Counted from the first letter of the stretch, positions 7,585-64,000 are shown. The stretch: 64,000 nucleotides of DNA from Candidatus Zhuqueibacterota bacterium (GCA_016783825.1 JADHVV010000002.1:3259-67258), one strand, 5' to 3'. Notes: generated by a model from the letters alone, not told the origin. Numbers and translations are program-made.

Positions 7585-7725
7585 AAATCATCCTACATGA
7601 ATAGTTATTATTAATGGTCTAATAAACAAATTCACCTGCGCTGGTGGTAAAATTGATTTATACTTTTTCCAGTTATTCATCTCTTTTAAATGGTTTGAAA
7701 GAGGAATCACTTTATTAATTTTCAT

Positions 7726-15264: not shown

Positions 15265-15632
15265 AAACTCACCATATTTTGTATTTTATTAAGTACGTTT
15301 TAAAGTACATAATATTTATCAAAATAGCAATATAAAAAATTAGCTGATCCAATTTTAAATCTTTGATTATAAAATTAGTATATTTTCAATCAAACAGGAT
15401 TCCTCTGATTTCACCAGATTGTACAGAGCGTAAAGCATCAATATTATTGCGTAACGATTTCATTATTTAGTGATTATTTTTTTTAAAAGACTTCACTAAA
15501 AAAAATGGAGTGATGTAGCATTGGATTTTTGAAAATCCATTACTCCAACACTCCAATACTCCATTAAACCAATCATCGACGATGAAAATAAAACATCGAT
15601 AAAATCTAGTAAATAATAGCCTAATTTACCCT

Positions 15633-30896: not shown

Positions 30897-30920
30897 ACTT
30901 TTGGGTTTTGAAGTATTTTT

Positions 30921-31260
30921 GTAACTATTCAGTGTGGTTACAAAAGTCATTCTGAGGGAGCTTGCGACCGAAGAATCTCTCTAAATTCTGCACTTTTTTA
31001 AAAATAATACGAGATTCTTCACTTCCCAACATCACCATCCCCCCCAGGGCTGTTCAGTTCTAATAAAAAATGACACAAAGTCATGTCATTCCGGCTGGAG
31101 CGAAGCGGAATGCCGGAATCTTGTGGTTGAAATCAGGAGATTCCGGCTAAAAACATGCCGGAATGACAGTTCTTAACAAAACTATATTAGAATTGAACAG
31201 CCCTGACCATCCCCCTCCCTCGTTCAGAATGACTTTAATACAACGAAACTGAATAGTTAC
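30921..31260. mobile_element. MITE-like palindromic element, copy A (carries a nested second element)
   Basis: Terminal inverted repeats gtaactattcagt / actgaatagttac. Subterminal IR gtcattctgagggag / ctccctcgttcagaatgac. Inner IR gaagaatctc / gagattcttc. Collinear with copies at 48939-49141 and 50866-51030 (the latter inverted). Confidence 0.8.
31045..31205. mobile_element. Second MITE-like element nested inside copy A
   Basis: IR cagggctgttcagttctaat / attagaattgaacagccctg. Flanked by duplicated accatcccc(c), a 9-10 bp duplication that looks like a target-site duplication. That stretch occurs only once, in a slightly diverged form, in the uninterrupted copy C. The core hairpin gtcattccggc...gccggaatgac is related to the elements at 40087-40181 and 57481-57560. 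Confidence 0.7.
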
Positions 31261-31295
31261 ATAATTTTTTAAAAAAGTAAGATAATAGGGTTATA

Positions 31296-31894: not shown

Positions 31895-33682
31895 ATGTAT
31901 CAAAATCAAGTCCCAATAAGTTCATTTTATCGAAGTGTTTTAAAAAAGAATGAGAATAGCATGACAAATGAAGAACTAAAAAATATTATAAAATCCGGCG
32001 AAAACATTTCCGTAGAATTTAAAGAAGCAAAACGCCAGCTGCCTGAAAACTTGTTTGAAACCATCTGTGCTTTTCTTAATATGGAAGGCGGGAAAATATT
32101 ATTGGGAGTTCGTGATGATGGGGCAATTTTAGGTGTTGATCCTGAAAGCATCGCCAGGCTAAAAAATGACATTGCCAATCTCTCAAATAATCATCAGAAA
32201 TTGGATCCTGTTTTTATGCTTTCTGCTCATGAAATAAAATATAAAGGGAAAACCGTATTATTAATAGATGTGCCGGTTAGTTCACTGGTACATAAGTGTA
32301 ATGGTGTTGTCTATGCCCGAAATGAAGAAGGTGATTATAGAATAACGCGGCTTGAAGCCATAGCAGGACTTGTCAATCGCAAACAAAGTTATTTTACAGA
32401 ACAGAGAGTTTATCCTTACATCACGATTGATGATTTGAATACAAAATTATTAAACCGGGCAAAAAGGCTTATTCAGGGAAATTCACCGGGACATCCCTGG
32501 ATTGAATTGCCAACCGACGAACTGCTGCACCGGGCAGGATTTTACCGTAAAGCATCGGATGGAGCAGAAGGATTTACCCTGGCAGCAATTCTTTTCTTTG
32601 GCAAAGATGAAACCATCCAGTCAGTTGCTCCAGCCTACAAATTTGACGCCCTGTTGAGAAAGCACAATCTTGATCGTTATGACGACCGCTTGATTGTACG
32701 AACAAATTTATTAGATGCTTACGATTTACTGATGGAATTTATTGCCAAACATTTGAACGATCCATTTTACCTGGAAGGTGATCTTCGTATTAGCTTACGG
32801 GACAAAATATTTCGGGAGTTGGTAGCCAATATCATTGCTCATCGAGAATACTTGGACGGTCGTCCGGCAACATTGATTATCTACAAAGACAAAGTGGTTT
32901 TTACAAATCCAAATATACCACACGGTAGAGGCGTCATCGATCCGAAACATTTCACACCTTTTTCAAAGAATCCAACAATTTGTAAATTTATGCTGCAAAC
33001 CGGTCGAATCGAAGAAGTGGGGTCAGGTATCAGGAATGTCAGTAAATATCTGCCGCTGTATTCAAAACAGGGTAAGTTCGAATTTATTGAAAGTGATATG
33101 TTTGAGACAAATATTTTTTTGGGTGAACTTACCCTACAAACTGCACAGAAAAGTTCCCCTGTAAGTTCCCAGATAAGTTCACAGAAAAGTACCCACGAAA
33201 CTACCCAGAAAACTACCCAGAAAATGATTGAACTTATTAAGGAAAATCCACACATAACGCGTAAAGAAATGGCTGTGAAAATAGGAATCACAGAAGATGG
33301 TATTAAATATAATTTGCGCAAAATGCAAAATAATAAAATTATAAAACGAATCGGTCCCGATAAAGGCGGATTTTGGAAAATAATCAATCAAAAAACTTTT
33401 AAATCTCATCAACAATCCATTGGGGAAAGTTCCCATATAAGTTCACAGAGAATTACCCAGAAAACTACCCACGAAACTACCCAGAAAACTACCCAAAAAA
33501 TGATTGAACTTATTAAGAAAAATCCATACATCACGCGTAAAGAAATGGCTGTGAAAGTAGGAATCACAGAAGATGGTGTTAAATATAATTTGCTCAAAAT
33601 GCAAAATAATAAAATTATAAAACGAATCGGTCCCGACAAAGGAGGATATTGGAAGGTAAATAAATCTAAAATGCAGGAATAA
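31895..33682 (+). CDS. AlbA_2 (Schlafen-like) + HATPase_c_4 ('RecG-like' putative ATP-binding regulator) protein with two tandem C-terminal wHTH modules
   Basis: ISVEFKEAKRQLPENLFETICAFLNMEGGKILLGVRDDGAILGV is the AlbA_2 motif. RELVANIIAHREY...VVFTNPN is HATPase_c_4-like. A 92-aa C-terminal module is duplicated. The likely true start is MTNEELKN at nt 31961. Confidence 0.8.
   Translation: MYQNQVPISSFYRSVLKKNENSMTNEELKNIIKSGENISVEFKEAKRQLPENLFETICAFLNMEGGKILLGVRDDGAILGVDPESIARLKNDIANLSNNHQKLDPVFMLSAHEIKYKGKTVLLIDVPVSSLVHKCNGVVYARNEEGDYRITRLEAIAGLVNRKQSYFTEQRVYPYITIDDLNTKLLNRAKRLIQGNSPGHPWIELPTDELLHRAGFYRKASDGAEGFTLAAILFFGKDETIQSVAPAYKFDALLRKHNLDRYDDRLIVRTNLLDAYDLLMEFIAKHLNDPFYLEGDLRISLRDKIFRELVANIIAHREYLDGRPATLIIYKDKVVFTNPNIPHGRGVIDPKHFTPFSKNPTICKFMLQTGRIEEVGSGIRNVSKYLPLYSKQGKFEFIESDMFETNIFLGELTLQTAQKSSPVSSQISSQKSTHETTQKTTQKMIELIKENPHITRKEMAVKIGITEDGIKYNLRKMQNNKIIKRIGPDKGGFWKIINQKTFKSHQQSIGESSHISSQRITQKTTHETTQKTTQKMIELIKKNPYITRKEMAVKVGITEDGVKYNLLKMQNNKIIKRIGPDKGGYWKVNKSKMQE
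33164..33665 (+). repeat. Tandem in-frame duplication (264/276-bp unit) encoding the wHTH module, preceded by 12-nt micro-repeats
   Basis: atgattgaacttattaag starts at 33224 and again at 33500 (offset 276). Unit 2 has one extra 12-nt actacccagaaa-type repeat (TTQK/THET). The truncated paralog has accatgcaagaa x2.5 at 31604-31640 (TMQETMQETMQ). Confidence 0.85.
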
Positions 33683-42400: not shown

Positions 42401-42416
42401 ATTCGCACTAAAGTAC

Positions 42417-42500
42417 AGGCGAAGGCTGAGGCAAAGGCGAAGGAAGAAAGAAAATCTTTAATCCTTTAATCTTTTACTTGCTTCGCCTCAGCCTTTCGTT
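42417..42500. repeat. aggcgaagg-type palindromic element between ftsI and murF
   Basis: aggcgaaggctgaggcaaaggcgaagg ... cttgcttcgcctcagcctttcg. A homologous ~100-bp element lies at 62821-62935. Confidence 0.7.
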
Positions 42501-48772: not shown

Positions 48773-48938
48773 GGTGATTGGGTAATTAAGTAATAGGATA
48801 ATTTGTTAATTTAATTATTTGCGTACACAAAGTACAAGGACAATAAGAGAAACCAACGGATAGAAACAATCCAACTGATGAAAGATTTTGATTCCAACTA
48901 AAGGCTAAGATTAAAGTTAAGGTTAAGAAAAAAAATAT

Positions 48939-49141
48939 GTAACCGTTCAGCATGGTCATAAATGTCATTCTGAGGGAGCTTGCGACCGAAGCACAGTCTG
49001 TACTTCCTTAAAATAATAAGGTAACTGTACAGGAATCTCCCCAATATTCACACAATAATATGAGATTCTTCACTTCCCACTCTCCCCAATCCCTTCCCCC
49101 GTTCAGAATGACATTGGTTCGACGAATGGCTGAACTATTAC
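48939..49141. mobile_element. MITE-like element, copy B, in the ftsA-ftsZ spacer
   Basis: TIR gtaaccgttcagc / gctgaactattac. Same gtcattctgagggagcttgcgaccgaag core as copy A. It carries an extra ~45-bp insert that also occurs at 12362-12406. Confidence 0.8.
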
Positions 49142-51033: not shown

Positions 51034-52599
51034 ATGCCTATGAAAAAAACACAGGAAAATAAATTCTTCAGTTTCAGTAAAAATATACTGAACAATGAAA
51101 AGAATAGTGTTAAACAGCAGCGAGAAGGGCTGCTTTCCATAGCCCTGGTATTTCCCAATTCTTATGCTGTTGGCATGTCTAACCTGGGATTTCAGACCGT
51201 TTACAAACTTTTTAATGAATTTCCCGGAGTCAGCTGTGAGCGCGCCTTCTATTACCCATATTTTCCTACTGTTACGAAAACACTGGAATCAAACCGGGAG
51301 TTAAGAGAGTTTGATGTCATAGCGTTTTCCGTATCTTTTGAAATGGATTTCATCAACATTATCCAAATATTAATAAATGGTGGGATAACGCCTTTATCTT
51401 CAAATCGTGATTTCCGCGAGCCGCTCATTATTGCCGGAGGCGCTGTAACCTTCCTAAATCCTGCCCCGCTCACTCCTTTTGTGGATATTTTTCTAATTGG
51501 AGAGTTGGAACCGAAGCTGCACACTTTGATGGAATCATTGCTCAATTCAAAAAAACAAAATCTGTCTAAAAATGAAATATTAGAATCGTTCAACGCCTCC
51601 CCCGGGTTTTATGTGCCTGCAAAATTTGAAAATCACCAAAAAGTACAAAAAGTACATTTCCATTTGAAGAATGAGAATCCTCAATATTCACCAATTTTAA
51701 GTCCGGATAGCCATTTTAAAAATATGTTCTTAACCGAAGTCGGACGTGGTTGTGGACGTAAATGTAATTTCTGTGCAGCCAGTTTCATCTATCAACCTTT
51801 TCGTATCTTTCCGGTGGAGCGAATTCTTGAAACGATCCGGACTCATTGCCAGGAAACAAAAAGAATCGGGCTAATTGGTTCAGCAATTTCCGATTACCCG
51901 AAAATCAAAACCCTCTGTTTGCAATTGGTGAAAAAAAATTATCAATTAGGTCTTTCCTCCTTCCGTCTTGATAAAATTGATGATTCTTTTATAAATATCC
52001 TGGAACGGGGAAAAGTAAATTCGATTGCCTTTGCCCCTGAAGCAGGAACTGAAAGATTAAGAAAAACAATCAATAAAAATTTATCCCAGGAACAAATTAT
52101 TGATGCCGCTGAAGTTATTTCGCATTCATCTGTGAACCAGGTCAAACTTTATTTTCTAATCGGATTACCGGGAGAAACATGGGAAGACATTGAAGGGATT
52201 GTTACTTTAGTGGATAAAATGCAGCAAATTTTTTATAGAAGTAAAAGAACCAAAAAAATGACTATTAGTGTAAACACTTTTATCCCAAAACCATTCACAC
52301 CATTTCAATGGGCAGCAATGGAAAAAATCAGTGAGATTCAGCGGAAACGAAAACACCTTAATAAGAAATTGAAAGCTTTGACCGGAGTACAGATTTCTCC
52401 TAAAAGCGCTAAGGAAGAAATCTTGCAGGGAATTTTTTCACTCGGTGGGAAAGACATTGGGAAAGCGATTTATTTTAAAATTATTGATAATTTAGACTGG
52501 GAGCAAGCCTGGTTAAAAGCCGGGGTGAACGAACAAAAAATATTATTTTCTGAAAAACAATCTGGTGAAGTTTTTCCATGGGATTTTAATGAAGCATGA
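51034..52599 (+). CDS. B12-binding-domain-type radical SAM protein
   Basis: EVGRGCGRKCNFCAASF (CX3CX2C), preceded by a Rossmann-like N-terminal domain. The listed start at 51001 lies inside MITE copy C. ATG at 51034 or 51040 is more plausible. Confidence 0.8.
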   Translation: MPMKKTQENKFFSFSKNILNNEKNSVKQQREGLLSIALVFPNSYAVGMSNLGFQTVYKLFNEFPGVSCERAFYYPYFPTVTKTLESNRELREFDVIAFSVSFEMDFINIIQILINGGITPLSSNRDFREPLIIAGGAVTFLNPAPLTPFVDIFLIGELEPKLHTLMESLLNSKKQNLSKNEILESFNASPGFYVPAKFENHQKVQKVHFHLKNENPQYSPILSPDSHFKNMFLTEVGRGCGRKCNFCAASFIYQPFRIFPVERILETIRTHCQETKRIGLIGSAISDYPKIKTLCLQLVKKNYQLGLSSFRLDKIDDSFINILERGKVNSIAFAPEAGTERLRKTINKNLSQEQIIDAAEVISHSSVNQVKLYFLIGLPGETWEDIEGIVTLVDKMQQIFYRSKRTKKMTISVNTFIPKPFTPFQWAAMEKISEIQRKRKHLNKKLKALTGVQISPKSAKEEILQGIFSLGGKDIGKAIYFKIIDNLDWEQAWLKAGVNEQKILFSEKQSGEVFPWDFNEA

Positions 52600-52679
52600 T
52601 AAATTGGACACTCATGCACTCACATCGATCCGCAGCGGAGGATTGTCGATAATTGCTGGGTAATATTATTATTAAAAAT

Positions 52680-52768
52680 CTTTGTGTAACTTTGAGGTTC
52701 TTTGTGGTACTTTGTGGTACTTTGTGAAATAGCTATTACACAAAGAAGACACAAAGTTTCACAAAAAG
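52680..52768. repeat. ctttgtg / cacaaag repeat cluster
   Basis: Five direct ctttgtg-type units at ~10-11 bp spacing, followed by three inverted cacaaag units. Confidence 0.65.
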
Positions 52769-52972
52769 ATTAAAGCGAATAGTGCGAAAACATCGCCAAA
52801 ACTTCTACTATATTTATTTTTTATAGCTGCTCCAAAGGAACCATATTATTAAGACATAGTCCTTAAAAGTATGTAGTATCTAACCAGTATACTTCTGCAC
52901 ATTTTTTTTCATTGACATTCTGAATTTGATATTGTATATTATTTTAAAGAATATTTTAGGAGATGATTTATT

Positions 52973-53176
52973 ATGAAAATAAAAGTAATAGTCGAAAAAG
53001 GCGAGGATGGTTATTTTGTGGCTCATTGTCCTTCATTAAAAAGCTGCTGGAGTCAGGGTAGAACTCACCAGCAGGCGTTAAAGAATATCCAGGAAGCAAT
53101 AGAATTATACTTAGAGCCGGAACCTGAATATTTTGTAAAAGACAAAGACCATAAAATTTATGAATTAGTATTATGA
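52973..53176 (+). CDS. hicB: HicB-family antitoxin (short UPF0150-type, 67 aa)
   Basis: GYFVAHCPSLKSCWSQGRTHQQALKNIQEAIELYLE is the family pattern. Confidence 0.85.
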   Translation: MKIKVIVEKGEDGYFVAHCPSLKSCWSQGRTHQQALKNIQEAIELYLEPEPEYFVKDKDHKIYELVL

Positions 53177-53388
53177 AACTTCCATTATTATCAGGTCGGG
53201 ATGTATTACTAACATTAAACCGTTTGGGTTTTGAAGAACTTCACAGGAAAGGCAGCCATGTTAAAATGAAACATCCTGACGGAAGAAAAATCGTTTTTCC
53301 TTTTCACAAAGAAGTTGACCGATATACTATGAAAGGCGCTTTAAAAGATGCAGACGTTGATATTGAAGAATTTATAAACAATATTTAA
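53173..53388 (+). CDS. hicA: HicA-family mRNA interferase toxin (71 aa)
   Basis: LNRLGFEELHRKGSHVKMKHPDGRKIVFPFHKE is the YcfA/HicA motif. 4-nt overlap with hicB. Confidence 0.85.
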   Translation: MKLPLLSGRDVLLTLNRLGFEELHRKGSHVKMKHPDGRKIVFPFHKEVDRYTMKGALKDADVDIEEFINNI

Positions 53389-53403
53389 TAAACATCCCAA
53401 TAT

Positions 53404-53440
53404 AAAAATCCCCTGAAAACTCCAGGGGATTTTTTTATTT
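53404..53440. terminator. Bidirectional rho-independent terminator between hicA (+) and ntpK (-)
   Basis: 12-bp stem aaaaatcccctg / caggggattttt with a 7-nt loop. A-run on the left, T-run on the right. Confidence 0.75.
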
Positions 53441-53488
53441 AGTTCATCGACGAAAAAACGATCTTGTAACATTCTAAAATGCTCTCTA

Positions 53489-53929
53489 TCAACCTTTAGG
53501 AATCGCCGTCATGGTAAACACCATTACAAACAAAGCAACCGTTTCAACAATACCAACAACCATGATGTAATTTCCAAAACCCTTTCCGGTCTCCCCTAAC
53601 GCATCCGCTGCTTTGGCGCCGGCTTTTCCCTGCATGTAAGCTGAAAATGCCATAGCGAGTCCGGCAAAAGCGCCAAGCAACATCTGGTAATGATAGCTTT
53701 CTGCTGGCAAATTAGCGCTCTGTATTGCGTTTCTTAATATCATACCATAAATCGTTTGCGTCAAAGGTGCACCGGCAAATGCAACCAGAATGAATGGCGC
53801 AGCTTTGTTCTGTATAAATGCTCGTTTCCATGCACCTATCGCAGCCATTCCGGCAATCCCGGTTCCCAATGCAGAACCTATCGCTGCAATTGCTAACGAT
53901 AAACTCATGTCTCCTAATCCTGATACCAT
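53489..53929 (-). CDS. ntpK: V-type ATPase proteolipid subunit K
   Basis: 146 aa, four hydrophobic helices, Gly-rich AIGSALGTGIAG, and a conserved carboxylate in IVETVALF. AAGGAG SD upstream. Confidence 0.85.
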   Translation of the reverse strand: MVSGLGDMSLSLAIAAIGSALGTGIAGMAAIGAWKRAFIQNKAAPFILVAFAGAPLTQTIYGMILRNAIQSANLPAESYHYQMLLGAFAGLAMAFSAYMQGKAGAKAADALGETGKGFGNYIMVVGIVETVALFVMVFTMTAIPKG

Positions 53930-54100
53930 AATTTTACTCCTTATTATAGGATTTATTTTTTTTATTCAATTATTTTACATTTATTGGTTTATTTGGAAAA
54001 ATTCCAATTTCCAAATAACAAATTCCAAATAAATCTCAAATTCCAAATCTCAATGACCAATGTTTGAAATTTGATTCCAACTTGGCGGGACAGCTACCCT

Positions 54101-54454
54101 CTATATTGGAAGATAAAAAATCTTTCCTTCCCATTCATTAAATTTGCTACACTCATAAACTAACAGTATATCTTCTATAACTTGACTAATCAGTGTATCC
54201 TGTTTGATTATAAAAATAGCCGGGATTTTTTGACCAGCCTTTTCACGTTCGTAAGCAAACCGAGGAATCGTTTCAGCATCATGAGTTAACAGGATAAGAT
54301 TTTCTTTGAAGGCATAATCAAGAACTGTTGTATCTTCTACGCCTGAAAGACCAATATCCTGAATTCTTACAATATCCAACTCATTATTTCTTTGTCTTAA
54401 TCCACGTACAATGTGATTATTGAAGTTTTCATCAGCTAAAAAACGAATCATCAA
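54101..54454 (-). CDS. DUF5615/Mut7-C-type PIN-like putative toxin (117 aa)
   Basis: IRFLADENFNNHIVRGLRQRN...DIVRIQDIGLSGVEDTTVLDYAFKENLILLTHD is the family pattern. Directly follows a DUF433 gene. Confidence 0.7.
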   Translation of the reverse strand: MMIRFLADENFNNHIVRGLRQRNNELDIVRIQDIGLSGVEDTTVLDYAFKENLILLTHDAETIPRFAYEREKAGQKIPAIFIIKQDTLISQVIEDILLVYECSKFNEWEGKIFYLPI

Positions 54455-54457
54455 ATT

Positions 54458-54805
54458 TTATTCTTTCGCATTTTTACGCTTTAATAAACGTTCACGTATC
54501 ATCTTAGTATCAAAATGTGATTGAATATTTTCCTTAATACTTTCTGCCAAACGATCATGTTTTTCCAAATAAGATTCTACTCTGTCCTGATCATTTAAGT
54601 AATAACTTATTGCTGAATATACATCGGCAAGTTTTAAAACAGGATATTGGTAAACTATTTCTTCACATGTTGACCCATTTTTAAAAGCAGTTATCACTGT
54701 ATTTAGAGTTACACGTGTATCTCCAATTCTTATTATTCCTTCAGAGTCATTTACAAAAGGTACAGTTTTTGTAGCAATCGAAAATTCCATCACACTAAAA
54801 TCCAA
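54458..54805 (-). CDS. DUF433-domain putative antitoxin (115 aa)
   Basis: IRIGDTRVTLNTVITAFKNGSTCEEIVYQYPVLKLADVYSAISYY matches the DUF433 HTH-like core. Confidence 0.7.
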   Translation of the reverse strand: MDFSVMEFSIATKTVPFVNDSEGIIRIGDTRVTLNTVITAFKNGSTCEEIVYQYPVLKLADVYSAISYYLNDQDRVESYLEKHDRLAESIKENIQSHFDTKMIRERLLKRKNAKE

Positions 54806-54835
54806 TAATTAATTTTCTGATAATGTTTACAAATA

Positions 54836-54864
54836 AATATAACACTTTATTTCTATCTTGTCAA
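54836..54864 (-). promoter_or_regulatory. Sigma70-type promoter for the DUF433/PIN-like pair
   Basis: On the minus strand: TTGACA (54864-54859), a 17-nt spacer, then TATATT (54841-54836). The -35 lies inside a duplicated copy of the ntpI 3-prime end. Confidence 0.5.
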
Positions 54865-54945
54865 TAAAATTCTGTTCCTTAAACCATCTTAACCTTTATC
54901 TCGATCTTGACCTGCGTTCTTTATTCTTATCTTGTCAACAAAATT

Positions 54946-56718
54946 CTACTCCTTAAACGGTTGATACGGACTCCCTGTCCATTGCACCCCCACATGTCCG
55001 GAAAACTCCAATAAATTTAAACGCACGCCGTGTACCAAAATAGACATGCCACATAACGCCAGGTTAATGGAATGACCGAGCAATAATACCACCGCCGCAA
55101 TTACTCCGCTAACAACCGAATCAATTCCAGCGCCGATCGCCATAGAATTAAAATTTGTTGCAACGATGACAGTTGCTAATCCCACGGCATACAGCCGAAT
55201 ATAAGATACGATGTCAGAAAATGAACTTATTATGTCCAAAGGTAAATTTCCTAAAGTAGCCAATACACCTTTGATAATATTTTTCTGAAAATTAGCAAAT
55301 AATAAAATAAGAACAACACCGGAAATGAACAGTGGCATTGTTAATCCTGACATCTCTTTTCCCAACACAATGTTATTAGCAATAAAATATACAGCCCATA
55401 AAACAAGCACCCAACCTAATTCAGCTATTGCTGTCATTGAGTTTATCCTGCGAAATGCACTCATTAATCGACCGACACTTAATTGAACAACTCCGATTAT
55501 AAAAGTCAACTTCATGATAAAATCCGATGAATCAGGATTAAAGCTATAAATTTCATCAACAATAAAAATTTTCAAAAATGGCAACTGGGAAATTCTTTCT
55601 GCGCCAAACCAGGTGCCTGTTATTAATCCCCATAATATTGTTACTGAACTCATAAAATACATTAAATAGAAAAAATCCTTTGAGCCCTGTTTATTTTTCC
55701 TGGAAATGAAGAAAGTAGCAAAGAGAAAAACCAGACCATAACCGGCATCTCCCACAATCATTGCAAAGAAAATACTGAAAAATGCCAGAAATACAAAACT
55801 AACATCTTGTTCATTATAACCCGGCAGTGTTCCCATAAATTCGAACAATGGCTTGATAATGCGAATCCACTTTGGATTTCGGGTTAATGTGGGAACTTCG
55901 CCGGGATTTTCGGGTGTTTCAATCATGTATCCCCAGCCATCAGCTTCAGCCTGCTTCTTTATTTCCGGCACCAGATCAACCGGGCAAAAACCTGACAGGT
56001 AAGCGATCTCCCCTTCCTCGCCCATTCCATATTTAACCAGGTTCAACTGTAACCGACTTTTCAAATCTGTTTGGTATTCCAAAATTCCATTGCGAATTGA
56101 CGAGAATGACTCAATTGCATCTTCCAGTAAATTGATCTCATCATTTAATTGGGAAATTTTATTTTCCAATTCAACAAGTTCAACCGGCGGAATTGGCTCT
56201 TCTCTTAAATCCAGTTTCTCTTCCGGAGATTCTGAAAACAAAGCCAGGTAAATGACATTTTGTTTTTCTTTCGCGACATGAAAAATCTTGTCTTCAGGCA
56301 GATTTTTGAGGAAATTTTTATCAGCAATATAAAAACGAATATAAATTCCCGCGTTTTTCAATTGTTGAATTGAATTGTATGAAACAGCTCCCCATTTTTC
56401 AAACCAGCGATGGATCTCTTTTTGTTCAGCTAATTCTCGTTGTAGGTTTTCTTTATTGTGCTGATGTTCCAGTATTAAATCAATTTCCGATTGAATATTT
56501 TCTATATCCGTTAGCAGCTTTTGGTTTTCAGGGTCACCAATAATTTGTAACGTTTTTTCGACATTCTCTAACTTTGATTCTAACGATTGAATATCTTCCG
56601 AAAGCGGATTATTTATATTTTTTATATGCAGCACACCTAACTTTCGTAATTTTTCCAATGCAAAATCACGATGTTTGCCGCTCACCAAAATGGTAACCTT
56701 GTTCATTTTGACTATCAT
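54946..56718 (-). CDS. ntpI: V-type ATPase subunit I (a-subunit, membrane stator)
   Basis: 590 aa. Cytosolic coiled-coil N-terminal half and a multi-TM C-terminal half with the essential Arg in SYIRLYAVGLA. Confidence 0.9.
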   Translation of the reverse strand: MIVKMNKVTILVSGKHRDFALEKLRKLGVLHIKNINNPLSEDIQSLESKLENVEKTLQIIGDPENQKLLTDIENIQSEIDLILEHQHNKENLQRELAEQKEIHRWFEKWGAVSYNSIQQLKNAGIYIRFYIADKNFLKNLPEDKIFHVAKEKQNVIYLALFSESPEEKLDLREEPIPPVELVELENKISQLNDEINLLEDAIESFSSIRNGILEYQTDLKSRLQLNLVKYGMGEEGEIAYLSGFCPVDLVPEIKKQAEADGWGYMIETPENPGEVPTLTRNPKWIRIIKPLFEFMGTLPGYNEQDVSFVFLAFFSIFFAMIVGDAGYGLVFLFATFFISRKNKQGSKDFFYLMYFMSSVTILWGLITGTWFGAERISQLPFLKIFIVDEIYSFNPDSSDFIMKLTFIIGVVQLSVGRLMSAFRRINSMTAIAELGWVLVLWAVYFIANNIVLGKEMSGLTMPLFISGVVLILLFANFQKNIIKGVLATLGNLPLDIISSFSDIVSYIRLYAVGLATVIVATNFNSMAIGAGIDSVVSGVIAAVVLLLGHSINLALCGMSILVHGVRLNLLEFSGHVGVQWTGSPYQPFKE

Positions 56719-57326
56719 ACGGGGCTCACTTCTTTCTTCTTTTCAATCTTCCCTTTGGCAATTTTACCACGAACAACCGCCGCTGTCAGTTGATCACCTA
56801 AAAAAATTTGAATGATCCGAATACTCTCTTTAGCTTCCGGGATTTTCACTTCTTCAAATAGTTTAATTCGCTGAACAGTAATACGTAACTCTTCTGCTAT
56901 TATGTCCTGCTGTTCTTTTAAAATTTTTAATTCAGCTCTGCGTTTAATCTGGTCTTTTGTTACTTCAATTCCTTTGTCTATCCAGAGTGGCGTATTGTAA
57001 AGATCAATTTCTGCATCTTCAAAAACAACATCCAGGTAAAGCGGAATATCAATACCGGCGATATTGTCTTCATCAGTCTTTATTTCTTTCACCTGAAAAA
57101 AGTCATTCAAATCAATGTCCTCAGCAAACACATCAACCCATTTTGTCACCTGTCTGTCTGACTTTTCGATTTCACTTCGCAGTTCATCAATTTTGTTCTG
57201 AATTAGCCTGATCTCGGCTAATAACTGTTTTTTCTTCAACTCGAGGGTTGGTAAATATCTGGTGAACCGTTTCAGGTTTTCCTTCTGGACTTTCAGTTCA
57301 TTTTTTGTGAATCTTATTTTTGCCAT
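56715..57326 (-). CDS. ntpD: V-type ATPase subunit D (central stalk)
   Basis: 203 aa. IRFTKNELKVQKENLKRFTRYLPTLELKKKQLL is the typical V-type D N-terminus. 4-nt overlap with ntpI. Confidence 0.85.
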   Translation of the reverse strand: MAKIRFTKNELKVQKENLKRFTRYLPTLELKKKQLLAEIRLIQNKIDELRSEIEKSDRQVTKWVDVFAEDIDLNDFFQVKEIKTDEDNIAGIDIPLYLDVVFEDAEIDLYNTPLWIDKGIEVTKDQIKRRAELKILKEQQDIIAEELRITVQRIKLFEEVKIPEAKESIRIIQIFLGDQLTAAVVRGKIAKGKIEKKKEVSPV

Positions 57327-57384
57327 TGCAGGTCCTAATTGTTACAAATATGATCTACATTCTTTTTGCAAAGATAATAAATTC

Positions 57385-57640
57385 CAACACTGAAAACACT
57401 GATACCCACCGAAATAAATTTTTTAATTTTTTTTCTTGCTACCGGACACTTTTTTAAAAACTGTACTTTTCGATTATTTGTCATGCCCGAATGCTTCTAT
57501 CGGGTATCCATTTGATCAATACTTAGGGGATTCCCGCTGAAAACATGCGGGAATGACAGGCTCTCCATGCACAATTTAAAAAGTGTCCGGTAATGAATTT
57601 TTTTTCAGTGATATTCAGTGTTATTCGGTGTTTAATTATG
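57385..57640. repeat. Three-layer nested palindrome between the RhuM gene and ntpD
   Basis: Outer layer: cactgaaaacactga...ccgaaat against attcagtgttattcggtg. Middle layer: accggacacttttt (57441-57454) against aaaaagtgtccggt (57578-57591). Inner layer: gtcatgcccgaatgc...gcatgcgggaatgac hairpin element (57480-57560). Confidence 0.7.
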
Positions 57641-57660
57641 CGAAACACATCGCTACGTCA

Positions 57661-58524
57661 TTAATTGGAATTATCCGGCCAATCATTCATTGTCATTGGA
57701 ATACCTGTCTCTGCTTGATGTTCTGCATAATCGAGATACATTGTTACAATTCTATTCAAGAATTTAATTTCTTTTTCGCGTAAATAATTTTTGGCTATTA
57801 CTACGTCCGATTTAATAATTTTACCGTTTGGCGCTTTTTTCCAGGTAGTTAATCCCATATAATCTTTTTTATGATCCGCGCGGTTTACAATAAGTTCTGC
57901 TGCGGTTTGTCCATGAGTTGCAAAATGAAGCTTGTTCTGAACTATTGCAAAAAAGGTTTTTGTTGTGGGGGATTGCAAATCATAATCAACGGCAGTTGCA
58001 TAAATATCGGTGATTTGTTGATAAAAATTTCTTTCGCTCTCACGGATATCACGAATTTCAAGTATTAAATCCTTGAAATATTGTTTGCTCAGATATGCTC
58101 CGTTTTTAAGCCTAACATCATCAAGAACATATCCACGAATCGCGAAATCTTTTAATACTTGTGTTGCCCATCTTCTAAAATTTGTGGCTCTCTCGGAATT
58201 TATTCTATATCCGAGTGATATTATCAATTCTAAATTATAATGTTCAACTTCTCTTTTTACTTTTCTGTTTCCTTCCTTTTGAACTATTAGGAATTTCCTA
58301 ATAGTTGAATTTTTATCCAACTCCTTAATGGAAAAGATATTTTTTAAGTGTTCATTTATTGTAGGTATTTTTACATCAAATAATTTTGCTATTAGTTTTT
58401 GAGTAAGCCATACATTTTCATCTTCTACCCGCACTTCTATACCATCTTTATTAGCTTGAGATGTAAATATCAAAAACTCTGCTGTACTATTCCTTATTGT
58501 AAGTCTGTTCTCTTTCTTTTTCAT
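57661..58524 (-). CDS. RhuM-family protein (287 aa)
   Basis: IRNSTAEFLIFT...VWLTQKLIAKLFDVKIPTINEHLKNIF...YNLELIISLGYRINSERATNFRRWATQVLK is the RhuM signature. The last ~9 codons duplicate the ntpB 3-prime end. Confidence 0.8.
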   Translation of the reverse strand: MKKKENRLTIRNSTAEFLIFTSQANKDGIEVRVEDENVWLTQKLIAKLFDVKIPTINEHLKNIFSIKELDKNSTIRKFLIVQKEGNRKVKREVEHYNLELIISLGYRINSERATNFRRWATQVLKDFAIRGYVLDDVRLKNGAYLSKQYFKDLILEIRDIRESERNFYQQITDIYATAVDYDLQSPTTKTFFAIVQNKLHFATHGQTAAELIVNRADHKKDYMGLTTWKKAPNGKIIKSDVVIAKNYLREKEIKFLNRIVTMYLDYAEHQAETGIPMTMNDWPDNSN

Positions 58525-58720
58525 AATTCAATAACGGTAATTCTCTTTTCAAGTGAAAGTTAATAAAATTATATTTGCAATCTCTATATAAAAAAGACAA
58601 ATTTTTTTAATATGTGCCTAACGGTAACTATATGAAAAGTAGGCGATTTCGTGGCATTTCACTATCAAGTTATACAAAGGTTGAAGCGAGCTACAACCCT
58701 TGAATTTACTACAATCCCGC

Positions 58721-59596
58721 TTATTTTTTATATACATTGTTGTGCGGCGTACTTTGTATTAATCTGTCAAATAATTCTGTTTTGATAATGTATTTTTCTG
58801 CATTCCAGCCATTTTCACTCTCAATTTTAATTAGTCCAAAATAGTCCAAAAACCTGTCAAATGTTCGCAATGAATAACATCTTCTTGCCTGCTCCTGATT
58901 TGTCTTAAAATTTGACTCTGCGATTTCATTTATTAGTTGTGGAAACGCTTTAAAATATTTGTCCGAATAGAATTTATCGATTCTTTTTTCAGTTCCATAT
59001 TTACTAAGAAGAATCAATGAAAATCCAAATCCTAATTGTCCAATACTATTTTGTCCATAACCATCATAATAAGCCCAATTAAATTTTGTCCCGAATATTG
59101 TAAAAATCAAGAATAGTAGTTTAAAGTCGTTACCAATTATTGATTTCCCTTTTTTTGTCAGGCTTAGTTTGTTATTCCACTTTTTTGCAATTCCTGATAT
59201 TTCAATTAAAATTCTTGTCAGGTTTATTGTTGAAGAATCAGTCTCTTTATACAATTTCGAAATTCCAGAATCTATGTGTTCCTCTTTTTTTATAAATCCT
59301 TGATTGTAAATATCCGAAACAATTTTCGTTGGTAGAAATCCTTTATTTGTAAGTCTTAATTCTCCATGATTTTCAATAAGTTTTAAAAGATATTTTATTT
59401 GGTTTAGTATTGGAATTCTTTTGTAGTCTGATTCTGTCAATTTTAATAATTGAATTGGACTATTTTTTTCAAAGGTGTTACAAAGAATATATTGCATTTC
59501 AATCGGTGAATATCCATCAAAATCAGGAAGTCCTTGATTGTTCTGCTCATTCATTATTTTGTCGATATGTTTTTGCAATTTTTCTATATCTTCCAT
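58721..59596 (-). CDS. Hypothetical protein (291 aa), co-oriented with the RhuM gene
   Basis: Clean ORF with normal composition. I recognise no family motif. The N-terminal DFDGYSPIEMQYIL is reminiscent of motifs in other uncharacterised bacterial proteins. Confidence 0.6.
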   Translation of the reverse strand: MEDIEKLQKHIDKIMNEQNNQGLPDFDGYSPIEMQYILCNTFEKNSPIQLLKLTESDYKRIPILNQIKYLLKLIENHGELRLTNKGFLPTKIVSDIYNQGFIKKEEHIDSGISKLYKETDSSTINLTRILIEISGIAKKWNNKLSLTKKGKSIIGNDFKLLFLIFTIFGTKFNWAYYDGYGQNSIGQLGFGFSLILLSKYGTEKRIDKFYSDKYFKAFPQLINEIAESNFKTNQEQARRCYSLRTFDRFLDYFGLIKIESENGWNAEKYIIKTELFDRLIQSTPHNNVYKK

Positions 59597-59771
59597 TGTT
59601 CATCAGTCTGTTTAGTATGCCACACAACGTATGTGTATATTCATTGCTCTTATACCGCTAATTTGGTAGTATAAGAACAATAGATTTCTTTATTCTATCA
59701 ATATAAAAATTATAAGAAAACCTTCATCCTGACGATTCTCAAATCCACCGTAGCGTTCCGGTAATGAATTA

Positions 59772-61079
59772 CTATTTAGAATTATCCGGCCAAAATTCAT
59801 TGATCAATTCTGAACGTATTCGAGTCTCCTCAGAAGTGAAGCACTCCGATAAAATTTGCCATCCACGGTCAAGCGCTTGTTCTAACGGAATATTGACTGA
59901 CAGGTCCATCATTTGTGATCTGAACATACCACCATATTTTAAAAGCTTATTGTCCCAGCTACTCATTCGGAATCCCATGGAACGTTTTTCTTCTGTTTCT
60001 AAAAATTGTGCATACAACTGAATCATACCATCCATGATTGCCCGGTGATCTTTTCGGCTTTGTTCTGCGCTGTTCACGTTTTGCTTTAACCGGCTCAATG
60101 ATCCAAATGGATCAATAAAACCCGTGTGCAAATAGAACTGACCTTCGGTAATGTAACCGGTATTATCCGGGACCGGGTGCGTTACATCATCGCCAGGCAT
60201 GGTTGTTACTGCCAAAACAGTAATGGAACCAGCGCCTTCAAAATCCACAGCCTTTTCGTAACGAGCAGCTAACTGGCTGTAGAGATCGCCGGGGTAGCCA
60301 CGGTTTGATGGAACCTGTTCCATGGTTATTGCAATTTCTTTTAACGCATCAGCGAAGTTTGTCATATCTGTCAACAGTACAAGCACTTCTTTTCCCTTTA
60401 ATGCAAATTGCTCTGCAACTGCAAGGGCTAAATCCGGCACCATCAAACTTTCCACGATGGGATCGGCTGCGGTGTTCATAAAAAAGATAGATCGTGAAAG
60501 CGCGCCGCCCTCTTCGAGTGTATTTTTAAATTTCATGTATTCGTCATACTTCAACCCGATACCGCCCAGAATGATCATATCGACTTCCGCCTGCAACGCA
60601 ACACGGGCTAACAACTCGTTGTAAGGTTCCCCGGAAATGGAAAAGATGGGCAATTTTTGCGAAACAACCAGCGAGTTAAAAACATCGATCATGGGAATAT
60701 TTGTACGGATCATTCTTTTTGGAATAATTCTTTTTGCCGGGTTAACGCTGGGCCCTGCCACGTTGATCAAATGTTCTGTAAGCAATGGTCCTTTATCCCT
60801 GGGATTGCCGGCGCCGTCAAAAATTCGTCCAAGCATATTATCGGAAAACGTGACCTGCATGGGACGTCCAAGAAAACGGATCTCATCATTTATGGAAACA
60901 CCCCGGCTGCCGGTAAAAACCTGCAACGAAACCAGGTCATTGTCGATTTTAATTACCTGTGCCAGCGACTTTCCTCGTTTTGTAGTTATTTCAGCAAGCT
61001 CTTCATATTCAATATCCGTCGCTTTAACCGTGATAACATTTCCGCTTATTTGTAATATTTTATTATAAACTTTTCTCAT
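59772..61079 (-). CDS. ntpB: V-type ATPase subunit B
   Basis: 435 aa, non-catalytic B-type sequence ([16 protein letters not shown]...[14 protein letters not shown]...[11 protein letters not shown]). 17-nt overlap with ntpA. Confidence 0.95.
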
Positions 61080-62805
61080 TTTCCGAGTACTCCTTAATTA
61101 ATTTCTCTATCGCACCTTCCTGGCTTTTAAACTCGGTGGAATCCATTTTGATATAGTTCCAATCAATGAACAATTGCCGCAATCTATTAAAAAACTCCCT
61201 GGCTTGTTCTTTTTCTTCTAAAATGAATTCCGTTTCAAGCACTCTCTCAACAACATCAAAAACATATTTTTGTCTTTCTTCACTCGAAGCAGCGTCCACT
61301 TCGTCAAACGCATTCTGTTGAAGAAACACACTGTCCAAAAACTCGGATTTCATATAGGATTGGAAATCATCAATCGATGTTCCTTCTTCGCCAACTACCA
61401 TCATCATTTGACCAACATCATTTCCCCTTCTCAGCATATCCTTGGCATCATCAATTTTTTGCTGGGGAATGAAACTATCGTATTTGCTCCAGCTATCCAA
61501 TGGATCAATGGATGGAAAACGGCGAGCATTGGCTCGATCACGGGACAGTCCGAGAAACGCGCCAACAACCTTCAACGTAGATTGTGTAACAGGTTCTTCA
61601 AAATTACCACCGGCAGGACTAACCGTTCCACCGATTGTTAAACTCCCTGTTTCGCCTGTATTCAATTCAACCAAACCGGAGCGTTCATAAAATTCTGCAA
61701 TACGAGATTCAAGGTAAGCCGGGAATGCTTCTTCCCCGGGAATTTCTTCCAACCTGCCGGAAAGCTCGCGCATTGCCTGCGCCCATCGTGAAGTAGAATC
61801 TGCCAACATCAAAACATCCAATCCCATTTGCCGGTAATATTCGCCAAGGGTCACTGCCGTATAAACCGAAGCCTCTCGGGCAGCAACCGGCATGGAACTG
61901 GTATTACAAATAATTATCGTTCTTTCCATCAACGTTTTGCCGGTTTTCGGGTCTTCCAATTCGGGAAACTCCCGCAGCAATTCCACAACTTCTCCAGCCC
62001 GCTCACCACACGCAGCAACGATGATAATATCTGCCTCTGCATGGCGGCTCAAAATATGTTGCAGCACTGTTTTTCCGGCGCCAAATGGTCCGGGCACACA
62101 AAATGTTCCTCCTTTTGCAACCGGGAAAAATGTATCGATGATCCGTGCCTGGGTAACTATTGGTTCTTTGGGAACAATTTTATCGCGGTAAGCATTAATT
62201 GGAATTTTCACCGGCCAATTAAAATACATGGAAATCTCATGAACACCACCTTTTTCATCTTTCAATTTCGCAATAGTATCTTTAATTGTATATTCCCCGG
62301 CTTCAACAATGTGGTCAACAGTCAACTCACCCGGCAGGTCAAATGGCACCATAATGGCATGTTTAAAAATCCCTTCGGGAACAGTGCCAAGTGGGATGCC
62401 TTGGACTACCGTATCTCCTTTTTTCACAGAAGGTATAAATTCCCATTTTTTTTCGTCGTCCAATGGTTTAAGTTCCACACCGCGCGGCAGGAAAAATCCA
62501 TAATGTTCAGCAAGATCGTGCAAAGGATTTTGCAGTCCGTCATAAACCTGCCCTAAAAGTCCGGGACCTAATTGTACTGATAAAAGCTGACCGCTGAACT
62601 CAACAATGTCCCCGATTTTTAATCCCTTCGTACTTTCGAACACTTGTAAAAATGCAACACCGTCACCAATGCGGACAATTTCTGCCTTCAATCTTTCCTC
62701 ACCTTTGATGATGTATGCCACCTCGTTTTGCATGATATTTATGTCAACGGAAACCGTAACCATGTTTCCACTAATACCAATTATTTTTCCAGTATTCTGG
62801 TTCAT
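61063..62805 (-). CDS. ntpA: V-type ATPase catalytic subunit A
   Basis: 580 aa. Walker [21 protein letters not shown], and the non-homologous insert typical of A subunits. AGGAGG SD upstream. Confidence 0.96.
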
Positions 62806-62820
62806 AAAGATACCTCCTGA

Positions 62821-62935
62821 CGCGCTAAAGCGCAGGCGAAGGCAGAGGCAAAGGCGAAGGAAGATAAGAAAATCCCTAATCCCTGTTGCTTTAATCTTTT
62901 ACCTTACTTCGCCTTAGCCTTCGCCTCAGCCTTTT
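62821..62935. repeat. aggcgaagg-type palindromic element directly upstream of the ntpA RBS
   Basis: gcaggcgaaggcagaggcaaaggcgaagg ... ccttacttcgccttagccttcgcctcagcc. Homologous to 42417-42500, including the central aatc(c)tttaatctttta segment. Confidence 0.7.
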
Positions 62936-62989
62936 CAATGTAATAGTCATTAAACTTGGTTAATAATACTTTTGCGAAATAACAAATAT

Positions 62990-63487
62990 TTAAATTGTAA
63001 CACTATAGAGCTTTTGAAATTTTTCCATTCCTGCTTCTTTATTAAAAGCGAAGTACCTGCTCAATAATTGTAGTTTTAAAAAATATAAAATAAGAAATCC
63101 AATGTCAAAATGATGTTCACGTTCCATCTCATCGATGAACGTCCACTGTTTTTCCATCAGCCGAATTTCGATCTCAAGGGGATCCCCATCTTTCAACATT
63201 GAAACGGGAAAACCGGTAGGCTTAAAATCCAGGTCCCGGCGCTGCGCATCACGCCAGAGTCCGATGTCAGATCGCATTTGAGATTCAAAATCGTTATATT
63301 GTTTCAGCACGTGATCTTTGGTTTTGCTGTCTGACAAATTTGCTTTGCTGATTCTCGAAAGCGAAGTCAAATCTTTTTCACTTACCCACTTTTGCGCTTC
63401 ATCCAAAAATTTTGTGATACTCATATCTGTTTCTTTGCCAAAAACTAATGTCGGCAATTGGGAAACAAAATAGTAATATTTATCCAT
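62990..63487 (-). CDS. DUF2764-family protein (C-subunit-position protein of Bacteroidetes-type V-ATPase operons)
   Basis: 165 aa. MDKYYYFVSQLPTLVFG is the N-terminus characteristic of DUF2764. Position between ntpE and ntpA. Confidence 0.7.
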   Translation of the reverse strand: MDKYYYFVSQLPTLVFGKETDMSITKFLDEAQKWVSEKDLTSLSRISKANLSDSKTKDHVLKQYNDFESQMRSDIGLWRDAQRRDLDFKPTGFPVSMLKDGDPLEIEIRLMEKQWTFIDEMEREHHFDIGFLILYFLKLQLLSRYFAFNKEAGMEKFQKLYSVTI

Positions 63488-64000
63488 TCTGTTTCTCCAG
63501 AATTTCTTTCAACCGCGGATTGATCAATGATTTCAAAACCTCGGCAATTGCAGCATCCGAAAAATCATAATAAACCTGCTCCCCTTTTAAGCCAATGCGA
63601 AACCCGTTGCTCACATCCGGACTGACCTTGATGGTTACGGAGTCCTGTAACTCTTTTTTCAATCCACTGAATAATAAATTTTCCAGTTCCTGTTTATCCT
63701 TCTCGTTAAGGACAATTTCAGTGTCCCCGTTTTTTGCCCAATTATCTAAAATATTCGTAACCAACTCATTCAAAAAATTTGGTCTCAAAACAGCCGCCAC
63801 TTCTTTTTTGAATACATTATCGAACAGCCCGTCAATTTTTTCCTTTAACAAAAGTTCGGCATTTCGGACGGCTTGCCGCAAATCTGCTATGGCATTCTGT
63901 TGAAATTGATCTGCCTGCCGCTTTCCATCTTCCACTATTTTTGCGGACTCTTTTTTTGCGTCATCCAAAACAGTTACTGCCTGTTTTTTAGCGTCACTAA
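63480..64000 (-). CDS. ntpE: V-type ATPase subunit E (5-prime partial; runs off the window)
   Basis: Lys/Ala/Glu-rich helical N-terminus and a globular C-terminal part (FRIGLKGEQVYYDFSD). The frame stays open from the listed TTG (63968) to nt 64000 (..SDAKKQAVTVL), so the true start is outside the window. Confidence 0.75.
   Translation of the reverse strand, partial: SDAKKQAVTVLDDAKKESAKIVEDGKRQADQFQQNAIADLRQAVRNAELLLKEKIDGLFDNVFKKEVAAVLRPNFLNELVTNILDNWAKNGDTEIVLNEKDKQELENLLFSGLKKELQDSVTIKVSPDVSNGFRIGLKGEQVYYDFSDAAIAEVLKSLINPRLKEILEKQNG

Follow-up and report, generated by a model that had tools for sequence, protein, structure and literature searches.

Integrase-less clusters of gene cassettes, the CALIN and SALIN, are reportedly the subject of work by Cury et al. 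in 2016 and of IntegronFinder 2. Islands that insert into the 3′ ends of genes and bring a replacement end with them form a classic pattern. Homology-facilitated illegitimate recombination is said to have been studied in 2002 by de Vries and Wackernagel and by Prudhomme, and in 2003 by Meier and Wackernagel. Such recombination, with joints at 3–10 bp of microhomology, is documented for laboratory transformation of three transformable bacteria, Acinetobacter, Streptococcus pneumoniae, and Pseudomonas stutzeri (summarised in PMC6382021). RhuM-like proteins are encoded in restriction-modification operons and have been proposed to be toxins (Anantharaman et al. 2013, PMC3710099). Here we analyse a stretch of 64,000 nt from a Candidatus Zhuqueibacterota (KSB1) bacterium (GCA_016783825.1, JADHVV010000002.1:3259-67258; hereafter the window, with positions counted from its first letter), in which a 2.1-kb segment carrying a RhuM-family gene and a 291-aa open reading frame (ORF) lies between ntpB and ntpD of a V-type ATPase operon.

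All components of this segment belong to known kinds, and the locus is a clear but fairly ordinary case of accessory-gene entry. It offers a natural worked example of the entry of an integron fragment and a defence-type gene into the middle of a conserved ATPase operon where no integrase resides, and its points of interest are a scar readable at the level of single bases, a second terminus relic at ntpI, a PF27146-family cassette found across phyla, and the short Xer-like recombinases that stand by arrays of such cassettes. As in CALIN and SALIN, the 291-aa ORF lies in a unit with a G↓TT start (the arrow marks the boundary), one ORF, and a 3′ attC with complementary R″ and R′ boxes, imperfect L″ and L′ boxes, an asymmetric loop, and bulges, and this cassette recurs in many genomes with no integrase close by. 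Unlike CALIN and SALIN, the cassette came here with leader DNA and a fragment of rhuM that is not a cassette, only one attC is intact, and the ends of the foreign DNA do not lie at recombination sites. The locus shares with homology-facilitated illegitimate recombination a TTGG joint on one side, a homologous gene as a possible anchor on the other, and the lack of a mobility enzyme. It differs from the laboratory cases in being read from a scar in an uncultured genome, where the anchor crossover cannot be located among relatives that are 10–15% diverged.

Table 1. Features of the ntp operon region, in window coordinates.
Feature	Coordinates	Strand	Basis or remark
ntpB (V-type ATPase subunit B), full length, intact	59772–61079	−	NCBIfam NF002555 1–433/436, 734.7 bits
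ntpB terminus, live (proximal) copy (TTGGCCGGATAATTCTAAATAG+T)	59771–59793	−	holds the exact 15-mer; last 18 nt equal the L199 ntpB end
14-mer, proximal copy (AATTCATTACCGGA on the minus strand)	59757–59770	−	exact match; 1 nt past the ntpB stop
Array leader (attI-like)	59629–59742	−	homologous to L131 (score 83) and L123 (score 58)
Predicted integron-type gene cassette, complete (G↓TTGTGTGG... to ...GTTACC-G)	58622–59628	−	similarity limits across >20 unrelated contexts
291-aa ORF (PF27146, Y4jL_N family)	58721–59596	−	precomputed annotation
Predicted attC: R″ CCGCACAAC, L″ TATATAAAAAATAAGC, L′ GCCTACTTTTCATATA, then GTTACC-G	58622–58747	−	hairpin fold once joined to the cassette start
Unit after the cassette, starting TTAGGCAC...	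58525–58621	−	~67 nt, then ~26 nt (58525–58550) of diverged type III mod 3′ relic
rhuM codons 1–282, native	57679–58524	−	Pfam PF13310 1–208/252; PADLOC PDC-S05 1–279/342
ntpB terminus relic (TTGG-CCGGATAATTCCAATTAA-T)	57660–57682	−	gives PDNSN-stop to the truncated rhuM; TTGG at 57679–57682 is the junction microhomology
14-mer, distal copy	57586–57599	−	exact match; within the palindromic element
Nested palindromic element, MITE-like, ~258 nt	57380–57637		inverted repeats I2 and I4; rhuM–ntpD spacer
ntpD (V-type ATPase subunit D)	56715–57326	−	Pfam PF01813; 23–48 nt upstream common to the sister lineages
Second terminus duplication: live ntpI end + 27 nt (54919–54958), relic 54845–54884	54845–54958	−	35/40 identical

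A mosaic insertion between ntpB and ntpD

All 76 GTDB species representatives that have both genes show ntpD as the immediate successor of ntpB. The gap between the two measures −4 to 376 nt (usually 13–30 nt), and in none of these 76 loci does it hold rhuM or the 291-aa ORF. Two sister lineages, L199 and L200, were found by an NtpD search (93 and 90% identity, respectively) and bring the number of relatives to 78; L200 comes from the same sample series as the window. The DNA of the two is 89–91% identical to the window in ntpB and 85–88% in ntpD, and both sites are empty, the spacers of 145 and 218 nt holding other palindromic repeats and no cassette. The ntpB tail reads ...TGGCCGGATAATTCTAAATAG in L199 and ...TGGCCGGATAATTTTAAATAG in L200, and the NtpB tail of the window is that of L199 (WPDNSK-stop in both; WPDNFK-stop in L200). 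Directly upstream of the ntpD ATG, 23 nt are identical to L200, and this side of the junction is therefore native. Since all 78 relatives have an uninterrupted ntpB–ntpD junction, the 2.1-kb segment is an insertion of foreign DNA, which bears out the initial annotation on the entry of two genes at this site. The GC content of the insert is 0.26–0.32, against 0.43–0.48 for ntpA and ntpB.

The insertion could reach back to the split from L199 and L200. No empty-site or excised variant was found among contigs with an identical NtpB, NtpD, or 291-aa ORF. The structure is identical in independent assemblies, with at least five samples spanning the whole segment (L001, L002, L004, L010, and L109), and is thus not an assembly artefact. 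The segment, described earlier as one cassette of two genes, does not form such a unit with defined ends and is a mosaic of an array leader, one true cassette, and a 3′-truncated rhuM (Table 1).

The cassette part is delimited by comparison between contexts. Similarity around the 291-aa ORF starts at GTTGTGTGGCATAC (59615–59628), 32 nt ahead of the ATG, and stops at ...AAC(C)↓GTT, 100–190 nt beyond the stop codon; in the window, the end reads ...GTTACC-G↓TTAGGC at 58620–58622. More than 20 distinct upstream contexts split off directly 5′ of GTTGTGTGG, and downstream contexts diverge past ...AAC(C)↓GTT, at the G↓TT boundaries that mark a mobile cassette. Cassettes that neighbour this ORF elsewhere begin with GTT+N6, of which the exact complement, N6+AAC, stands directly behind their own stop (start/complement pairs GTTGTGCGG/CCGCACAAC, GTTATGGGC/GCCCATAAC, and GTTGGGCGG/CCGCCCAAC), and the corresponding pair of the 291-aa ORF is GTTGTGTGG/CC(A/G)CACAAC. 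This R″/R′ pairing holds at 9/9 positions in three neighbouring cassettes, in 291-aa-ORF homologues such as that of L093, and in further cassettes, and at 8/9 positions in the window, where GTTGTGTGG pairs with CCGCACAAC. The cassettes have imperfect inner inverted repeats, with spacers of 3–4 nt on one side and 5–6 nt on the other. When the architecture was searched for under strict criteria, the loci with the 291-aa ORF (641 kb) gave 46 matches and the control ntp loci (822 kb) gave 7.

Assignment of attC combined this box architecture with single-strand DNA folds of reconstituted sites, joined as they would be in the excised circle. DNA folds of the region 3′ of the 291-aa ORF did not stand out from shuffles as long as the R″ box and the cassette start were left out, and the hairpin appeared only once the circular junction was rebuilt. 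Joined to its own cassette start, the window attC folds with z = −2.7 on the top strand and −3.4 on the bottom strand, while seven reconstituted attC sites from related loci give z of −2.9 to −6.5. The predicted folds comprise an R box, an asymmetric internal loop (2–6 nt vs. 5–6 nt), and a stem with single-base bulges. By its boxes, boundaries, and predicted fold, the 291-aa ORF unit is a complete integron-type gene cassette with intact attC anatomy. The insert holds this one intact attC, where a CALIN has two or more close together, and the leader is attC/attI-like with a degenerate R″. A crude attC scan of the whole window was unspecific (19 matches vs. ~11 in shuffles) and gave no other convincing attC. 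An Rfam scan of 52000–64000 returned only chance-level microRNA and small nucleolar RNA matches, and promoter and terminator matches within the insert are no more numerous than in shuffles.

The 291-aa ORF has 1177 homologues at E ≤ 0.001, and 1552 clusters were counted at 50% identity. The best 120 of the 1177 homologues are 61–82% identical, and the few sources with a name are KSB1, Cloacimonadota, and Bacteroidales. PF27146 (~1550 clusters) is thus a large and widespread family, remarkably well conserved between phyla, that travels across them as an integron cassette. One identical homologue, P0039, was met in no fewer than four contexts unrelated to one another, and contigs frequently end right after it. 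In other arrays, the neighbours of the ORF are often of defence type (AIPR, Fic, DUF262, NOV_C, and DUF7149). The protein itself has no match at curated thresholds in Pfam, NCBIfam, PADLOC, or PHROGs, and no sequence match to any solved structure. An AlphaFold model (predicted local distance difference test score 76.5, predicted template modelling score 0.75) has no significant fold match in the PDB (best E = 0.07), and its weak matches are to winged-helix proteins (PadR, MarR, MukE, and ScpB). That the ORF might be a hidden recombinase or transposase, with the 14-nt inverted repeats at its ends as termini, was considered and ruled out: the fold is only weakly winged-helix, and the idea was dropped because these end repeats are the R″/R′ boxes of attC.

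One Logan contig, L011, agrees with the window at 100% of positions across ntpB and the 291-aa ORF and for 41 nt past the stop of the latter, down to window position 58680. From the equivalent of 58679 onward (L011 2360–3137) it continues with a diverged attC and then a DUF7149 gene (type IIG restriction-modification-like) in the place of rhuM. As proof of cassette swapping in place, L011 was set aside, since it diverges within attC rather than at G↓TT. A divergence at that point may be an assembly jump between two cassette copies, and the contig is ambiguous between such a jump and a real variant made by recombination of two copies.

On the ntpD side of the cassette stands the RhuM ORF (57661–58524, minus strand; 287 aa, against 338–350 aa in homologues), whose match to PF13310 is strong and partial (E = 1.6e-95; Table 1). 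Homologous proteins read ...GIPMTM(N/D)DW-AEKLNAFLKFN... and go on for ~60 residues more, whereas the window protein turns to PDNSN-stop past W282. Likewise, the rhuM DNA homology runs to ...ATGACAATGAATGATTGG and ends after TGG, where homologues continue with GGC... and the window with CCGGATAATTCC.... The four bases TTGG at this point are common to rhuM (..GATTGG↓GC in homologues) and ntpB (..TTTTGG↓CC). Here, at codon 282, rhuM breaks off, and its reading frame continues into a relic of the ntpB tail. The earlier statement that the ORF borrows its end from ntpB is correct, with the last five codons and the stop coming from the relic. The R″ box expected of a rhuM cassette, GCCTAAC, is absent behind rhuM, and whatever came after rhuM has thus been lost.

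Like the RhuM proteins of restriction-modification operons, the window copy is 86–92% identical to its closest full-length homologues and has a mod 3′ relic upstream; unlike them, it lacks the C-terminal ~60 residues and restriction-modification partners, and carries five NtpB-derived codons. Of those whose loci were retrieved, P0123–P0125 (89–91% identical, 347–350 aa) are encoded downstream of mod or between mod and res in type III operons, and P0128 (86%) is a solitary gene preceded by the same mod remnant. The relic just upstream of the rhuM ATG is diverged: the window has GAAAAGAGAATTACCGTTATTGAATT-ATG where L105 and L192 have GAAACGAAAGTGACGGTGATATAAT(T)-ATG upstream of rhuM. The window rhuM thus derives from a type III restriction-modification operon.

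On the ntpB side, the cassette is preceded by a 114-nt leader. Aligned with the DNA ahead of the same cassette in L131 the leader scores 83, against 30.2 ± 5.0 in shuffles (0/500 reach it), and with that in L123 it scores 58 (0/500). Judged by this homology, the 114-nt leader is not native spacer. The likeness surfaced by gapped local alignment after blastn-short had found nothing; by blastn-short, the proximal 140 nt, the region upstream of rhuM, and the distal spacer had no homologues in the fetched loci. In both L131 and L123 the leader-homologous DNA lies directly 3′ of a co-directional tyrosine-recombinase gene, the 3′ end of which reads ...TTEIYTHVSKNAINNIKNQMDVF in L123 and ...IQNPVDEFFE-stop in L131. 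The window ...GFENRQDEGF... aligns opposite the latter, and although the resemblance of FENRQDEGF is weak, the first ~25–30 nt of the leader (10–12 codons) may tentatively be read as what remains of the 3′-terminal codons of a recombinase gene. No tyrosine recombinase was found in the 64-kb window by tblastn searches, one of them with IntI1 as the query, and the window does not contain the arrangement of a complete integron, IntI beside attI and an array. The claim that no integrase is present holds for intact genes in the window, with the caveat that the counterpart of the leader in L131 and L123 lies behind a recombinase gene, of which the leader may keep 10–12 codons.

Arrays with the 291-aa ORF stand beside short XerA-like recombinase genes or their 3′ fragments in L136 (1000–4372), L123 (329–575), L131 (1–136), and L097 (4406–4580). 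The recombinase is divergent in L136 and co-directional in the other three, and in L123 and L131 the 291-aa ORF is the first cassette. Full length can be read only in L136; the other three show C-terminal tips. The L136 gene lies 16 nt from the first cassette boundary; its product scores above the threshold of NF040815 ("tyrosine recombinase/integron integrase"; 231.8 bits against a cutoff of 220) and, with 200 bits against 265, below that of the integron-integrase model TIGR02249. It also lacks the ~35-aa insertion specific to IntI and has an in-frame stop.

The duplicated ntpB terminus

The segment is flanked by two exact repeats, as first reported: the 14-mer TCCGGTAATGAATT is present at both positions given in Table 1, and the 15-mer GAATTATCCGGCCAA at 57668–57682 and 59779–59793. 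The blocks are 8 nt apart near ntpB (59771–59778) and 68 nt apart near the RhuM ORF (57600–57667), and both spacings agree with the earlier description. The similarity of the flanks is significant. Their local alignment scores 41, whereas shuffles score 20.6 ± 2.8 with a maximum of 34 (0/500 reach 41), and of 2000 dinucleotide-preserving shuffles of 57300–59900, one holds a collinear pair of exact blocks, each 14 nt or longer, within 150 nt. Other near-matches to the 14-mer in the window all lie within coding sequence, and as further copies of the repeat they were ruled out as chance.

The ntpB-derived relic behind rhuM is TTGG-CCGGATAATTC-CAATTAA-T, ~23 nt long, and the 14-mer comes on top of it. 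The ends ...MNDWPDNSN-stop of the RhuM ORF and that of NtpB are as the initial annotation gave them, and the ntpB terminus is duplicated, as it had proposed. The block of ~32 bp that it drew around the 15-mer divides in two. The part covering the 15-mer belongs to the relic, whereas the upstream part, ATGACAATGAATGATTGG, is native rhuM, since rhuM homology runs through it and it is conserved in homologues; at this point native rhuM resembles ntpB CAATGAAT by coincidence, with a one-base offset.

The two copies of the terminus are not the same allele. The eight bases downstream of the 15-mer (57660–57667) have 3 mismatches to the live copy, and in all, 3 substitutions and a 60-nt indel separate the live terminus from the relic, in a population that is 99.9–100% identical. 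Two alleles fit these differences better than a fresh duplication. The live ntpB tail is identical to that of L199 at 18/18 nt and is therefore the clade-typical copy, while the tail behind rhuM (...TCCAATTAA, then TGACGTAGCG) is the deviant one. A clean target-site duplication of ~40 bp, a tempting reading of such flanking repeats, thus has to be corrected: the copies are diverged, and their similarity is in part pre-existing rhuM.

Between the relic and ntpD lies a palindromic element resembling a miniature inverted-repeat transposable element (MITE). As single-strand DNA, the 339-nt spacer that contains it (57327–57665) folds at −53.6 kcal/mol (z = −6.5). The core of the element, GTCATTCCCGCATGTTTTCAGCGGGAATCC, resembles a repeat at 31139–31169, and this 31-nt related core is all of it that is found elsewhere in the window. 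The ntpB–ntpD spacers of L199 and L200 bear palindromic repeats of a different kind.

Routes of entry

We favour, with a probability of roughly 0.55, the reading that the insert is an integrase-less integron fragment together with a truncated rhuM, joined by illegitimate and possibly homology-facilitated recombination. The source DNA would be a piece broken from an integron-type cassette array without its own integrase, and the incoming DNA, from a related strain, would already have borne this array behind its own ntpB end. Homologous pairing and crossover within ntpB would have resolved the left side. On the right side, an illegitimate joint would have formed at TTGG, between rhuM codon 282 and ntpB codon 430, inside the ntpB tail of the recipient. 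As an outcome, ntpB would remain intact and the old terminus of the recipient would be left as a relic, the ~23-nt ntpB piece and a 14-nt downstream piece now trailing a rhuM of which 846 nt were kept. A single such event would account for an intact ntpB, a relic terminus, a truncated rhuM with borrowed codons, and copies that differ. A 4-nt microhomology joint is a mark of illegitimate recombination, and TTGG falls within the 3–10 bp seen at such joints. The foreign DNA ends in or beside the 3′ tip of a recombinase gene on one side and inside rhuM on the other, with neither end at G↓TT; ends this arbitrary argue against insertion by an integrase at attG, against a site-specific island, and against transposition. 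The make-up of the mosaic, the point of truncation, the microhomology, and the empty sites of relatives are observed, while the recombination pathway and the donor are inferred.

Several observations weigh against this reading. The relic is the atypical allele and the live tail is the one identical to L199, so that the reading has to invoke later drift or a partner more distantly related. The 14-mer lies inside the palindromic element distally and stands isolated proximally, which no model explains cleanly. No donor or intermediate genome was found in which the array follows an intact ntpB and rhuM is full length. The favoured route also assumes natural competence of this KSB1 bacterium. Finally, a duplication made at the time of insertion, by template switching and followed by ~10% drift, offers another, if unlikely, account of the same flanks.

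This last alternative takes the form of a transposition-like event with a target-site duplication of ~37–100 bp, or of replicative template switching (microhomology-mediated break-induced replication) that re-entered ntpB upstream of its exit, with later divergence of the copies. It would explain direct repeats on both sides of the insert and the TTGG microhomology, here at the re-entry joint, and the age of the insertion may allow ~10% drift, the sister lineages being 10–15% diverged. A 60-nt indel and 3 substitutions would, however, have had to accumulate within ~100 nt after the event while the 291-aa ORF, the attC, and the 287-codon rhuM frame all stayed intact, and the repeats, diverged and unequally spaced, are accompanied neither by terminal inverted repeats at the insert ends nor by a transposase. 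Much the same low probability attaches to an integron integrase acting in trans, which would have placed one or more cassettes into an attG site of the ntpB–ntpD spacer, with local deletion, duplication, and MITE insertion following. Cassette insertion at attG sites (5′-GWT-3′) has been shown experimentally (Loot et al., bioRxiv 10.1101/2022.09.11.507474). By its anatomy, the 291-aa ORF unit is a bona fide cassette with an intact attC, and isolated cassettes and small integrase-less clusters (SALIN and CALIN) are common. Yet what precedes the cassette on its left is integron leader, by its homology to L131 and L123, and not native spacer, which means that the arriving DNA was larger than a cassette. 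On the right, the foreign DNA ends inside rhuM and not past an attC, with the R″ box GCCTAAC missing, and recombination of attC with attG leaves no duplication.

A site-specific island, integrated into an attachment (att) site that overlaps the 3′ end of ntpB, would make the two copies attL and attR and would require later loss of the integrase. The locus resembles islands and prophages in gene 3′ ends in its direct repeats with the gene terminus and in the intact upstream gene; an identical 15-nt core with imperfectly similar flanks is what many att sites show, and the possible 3′ relic of a recombinase lies just inside the proximal repeat. That relic would nevertheless belong to an integron-type platform, which uses attC and attI (G↓TT) and not the ntpB tail. 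Unlike at such islands, the repeats are short (~23 + 14 nt) and diverged, and no integrase is present in the 64 kb. The distal "att" is internal to rhuM, abutting codon 282 of ~345, where the similarity is partly native rhuM, and in ~100 other loci the 291-aa-ORF cassette is never flanked by ntpB-like repeats. We regard an island of this kind as quite unlikely. Chance similarity or an assembly chimera would be suggested by the metagenomic origin of the contigs, several of which, in Logan, end within rhuM; with identical junctions in at least five independent assemblies spanning the segment, and collinear blocks that shuffles almost never reproduce, this explanation is hardly credible.

Other events and repeats in the operon

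The initial annotation had suggested a recurrent mechanism that places accessory genes at junctions of this operon, and a part of the evidence points the same way. A second terminus relic lies at ntpI (Table 1), 74 nt from the live copy and upstream of a DUF433/PIN gene pair, with the stop TAG changed to CAG; the true NtpI end, ...PFKE-stop, is confirmed by relatives. What is lacking at these junctions is an attC, none having been found beside the toxin-antitoxin pairs by the crude attC scan. The second copy of the ntpI end bears a perfect TTGACA-N17-TATATT promoter-like site. The pair itself, DUF433 and DUF5615/PIN, lies between ntpI and ntpK (54101–54805) and is absent in all relatives checked; as these have ntpI followed directly by ntpK, the pair is also a lineage-specific insertion. 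Just past ntpK, a HicB/HicA pair (52973–53388) is arranged convergently.

Strain variants add a third kind of trace. L002, L003, L005, and L006 each have 6 mismatches to the window. In L002 the six fall within 44 nt of the 3′ part of ntpA (61353–61396) at spacings that are multiples of 3 nt, a pattern consistent with a single codon position, and the cluster suggests a short recombination tract from a diverged allele. Together with the ntpI relic, the ntpA tract makes recombination with diverged DNA that leaves terminus relics seem recurrent in the operon.

Two broader ideas follow, which we put forward jointly and tentatively, as fairly unlikely. One is that a combination of one-sided homologous and illegitimate recombination would be a habitual route of accessory genes in this lineage. 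If so, such genes would be slotted into a housekeeping operon that stays unbroken, and a duplicated gene end would be a signature searchable in metagenomes; if terminus relics prove common, they would provide a simple sequence mark of illegitimate recombination in uncultured bacteria. The other is that PF27146 arrays would form a non-canonical integron platform. This idea is based on arrays that are canonical at the level of attC, on the recombinase alongside them, which is always short and XerA-like (L136, L123, L131, and L097), and on the 291-aa ORF, which is often the first cassette. Standard detection would then file such a platform as integrase-less.

Several further repeats were noted in the window. 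Two sites, 30891–31278 and 48909–49126, carry an intergenic repeat family marked by the motif GTCATTCTGAGGGAGCTTGCGACCGAAG, whose copies are 75–83% identical. A direct repeat of 234 nt (33150–33383 and 33426–33659; 276 nt apart) is 91% identical, and a repeat of ~296 nt, 87–91% identical, is found 7.3 kb apart at 7725–8017 and 15011–15304. An exact repeat of 31 nt lies at 12202–12232 and 12269–12299, 67 nt apart. Downstream of hicB, a palindromic tract of short CACAAAG-type repeats (52677–52771) gives spurious Rfam microRNA matches on both strands. A stretch of 51 nt rich in GCGAAGGC/GAGGCAAAGG stands upstream of ntpA (62821–62871) and again, 86% identical, 20 kb away at 42404–42454.

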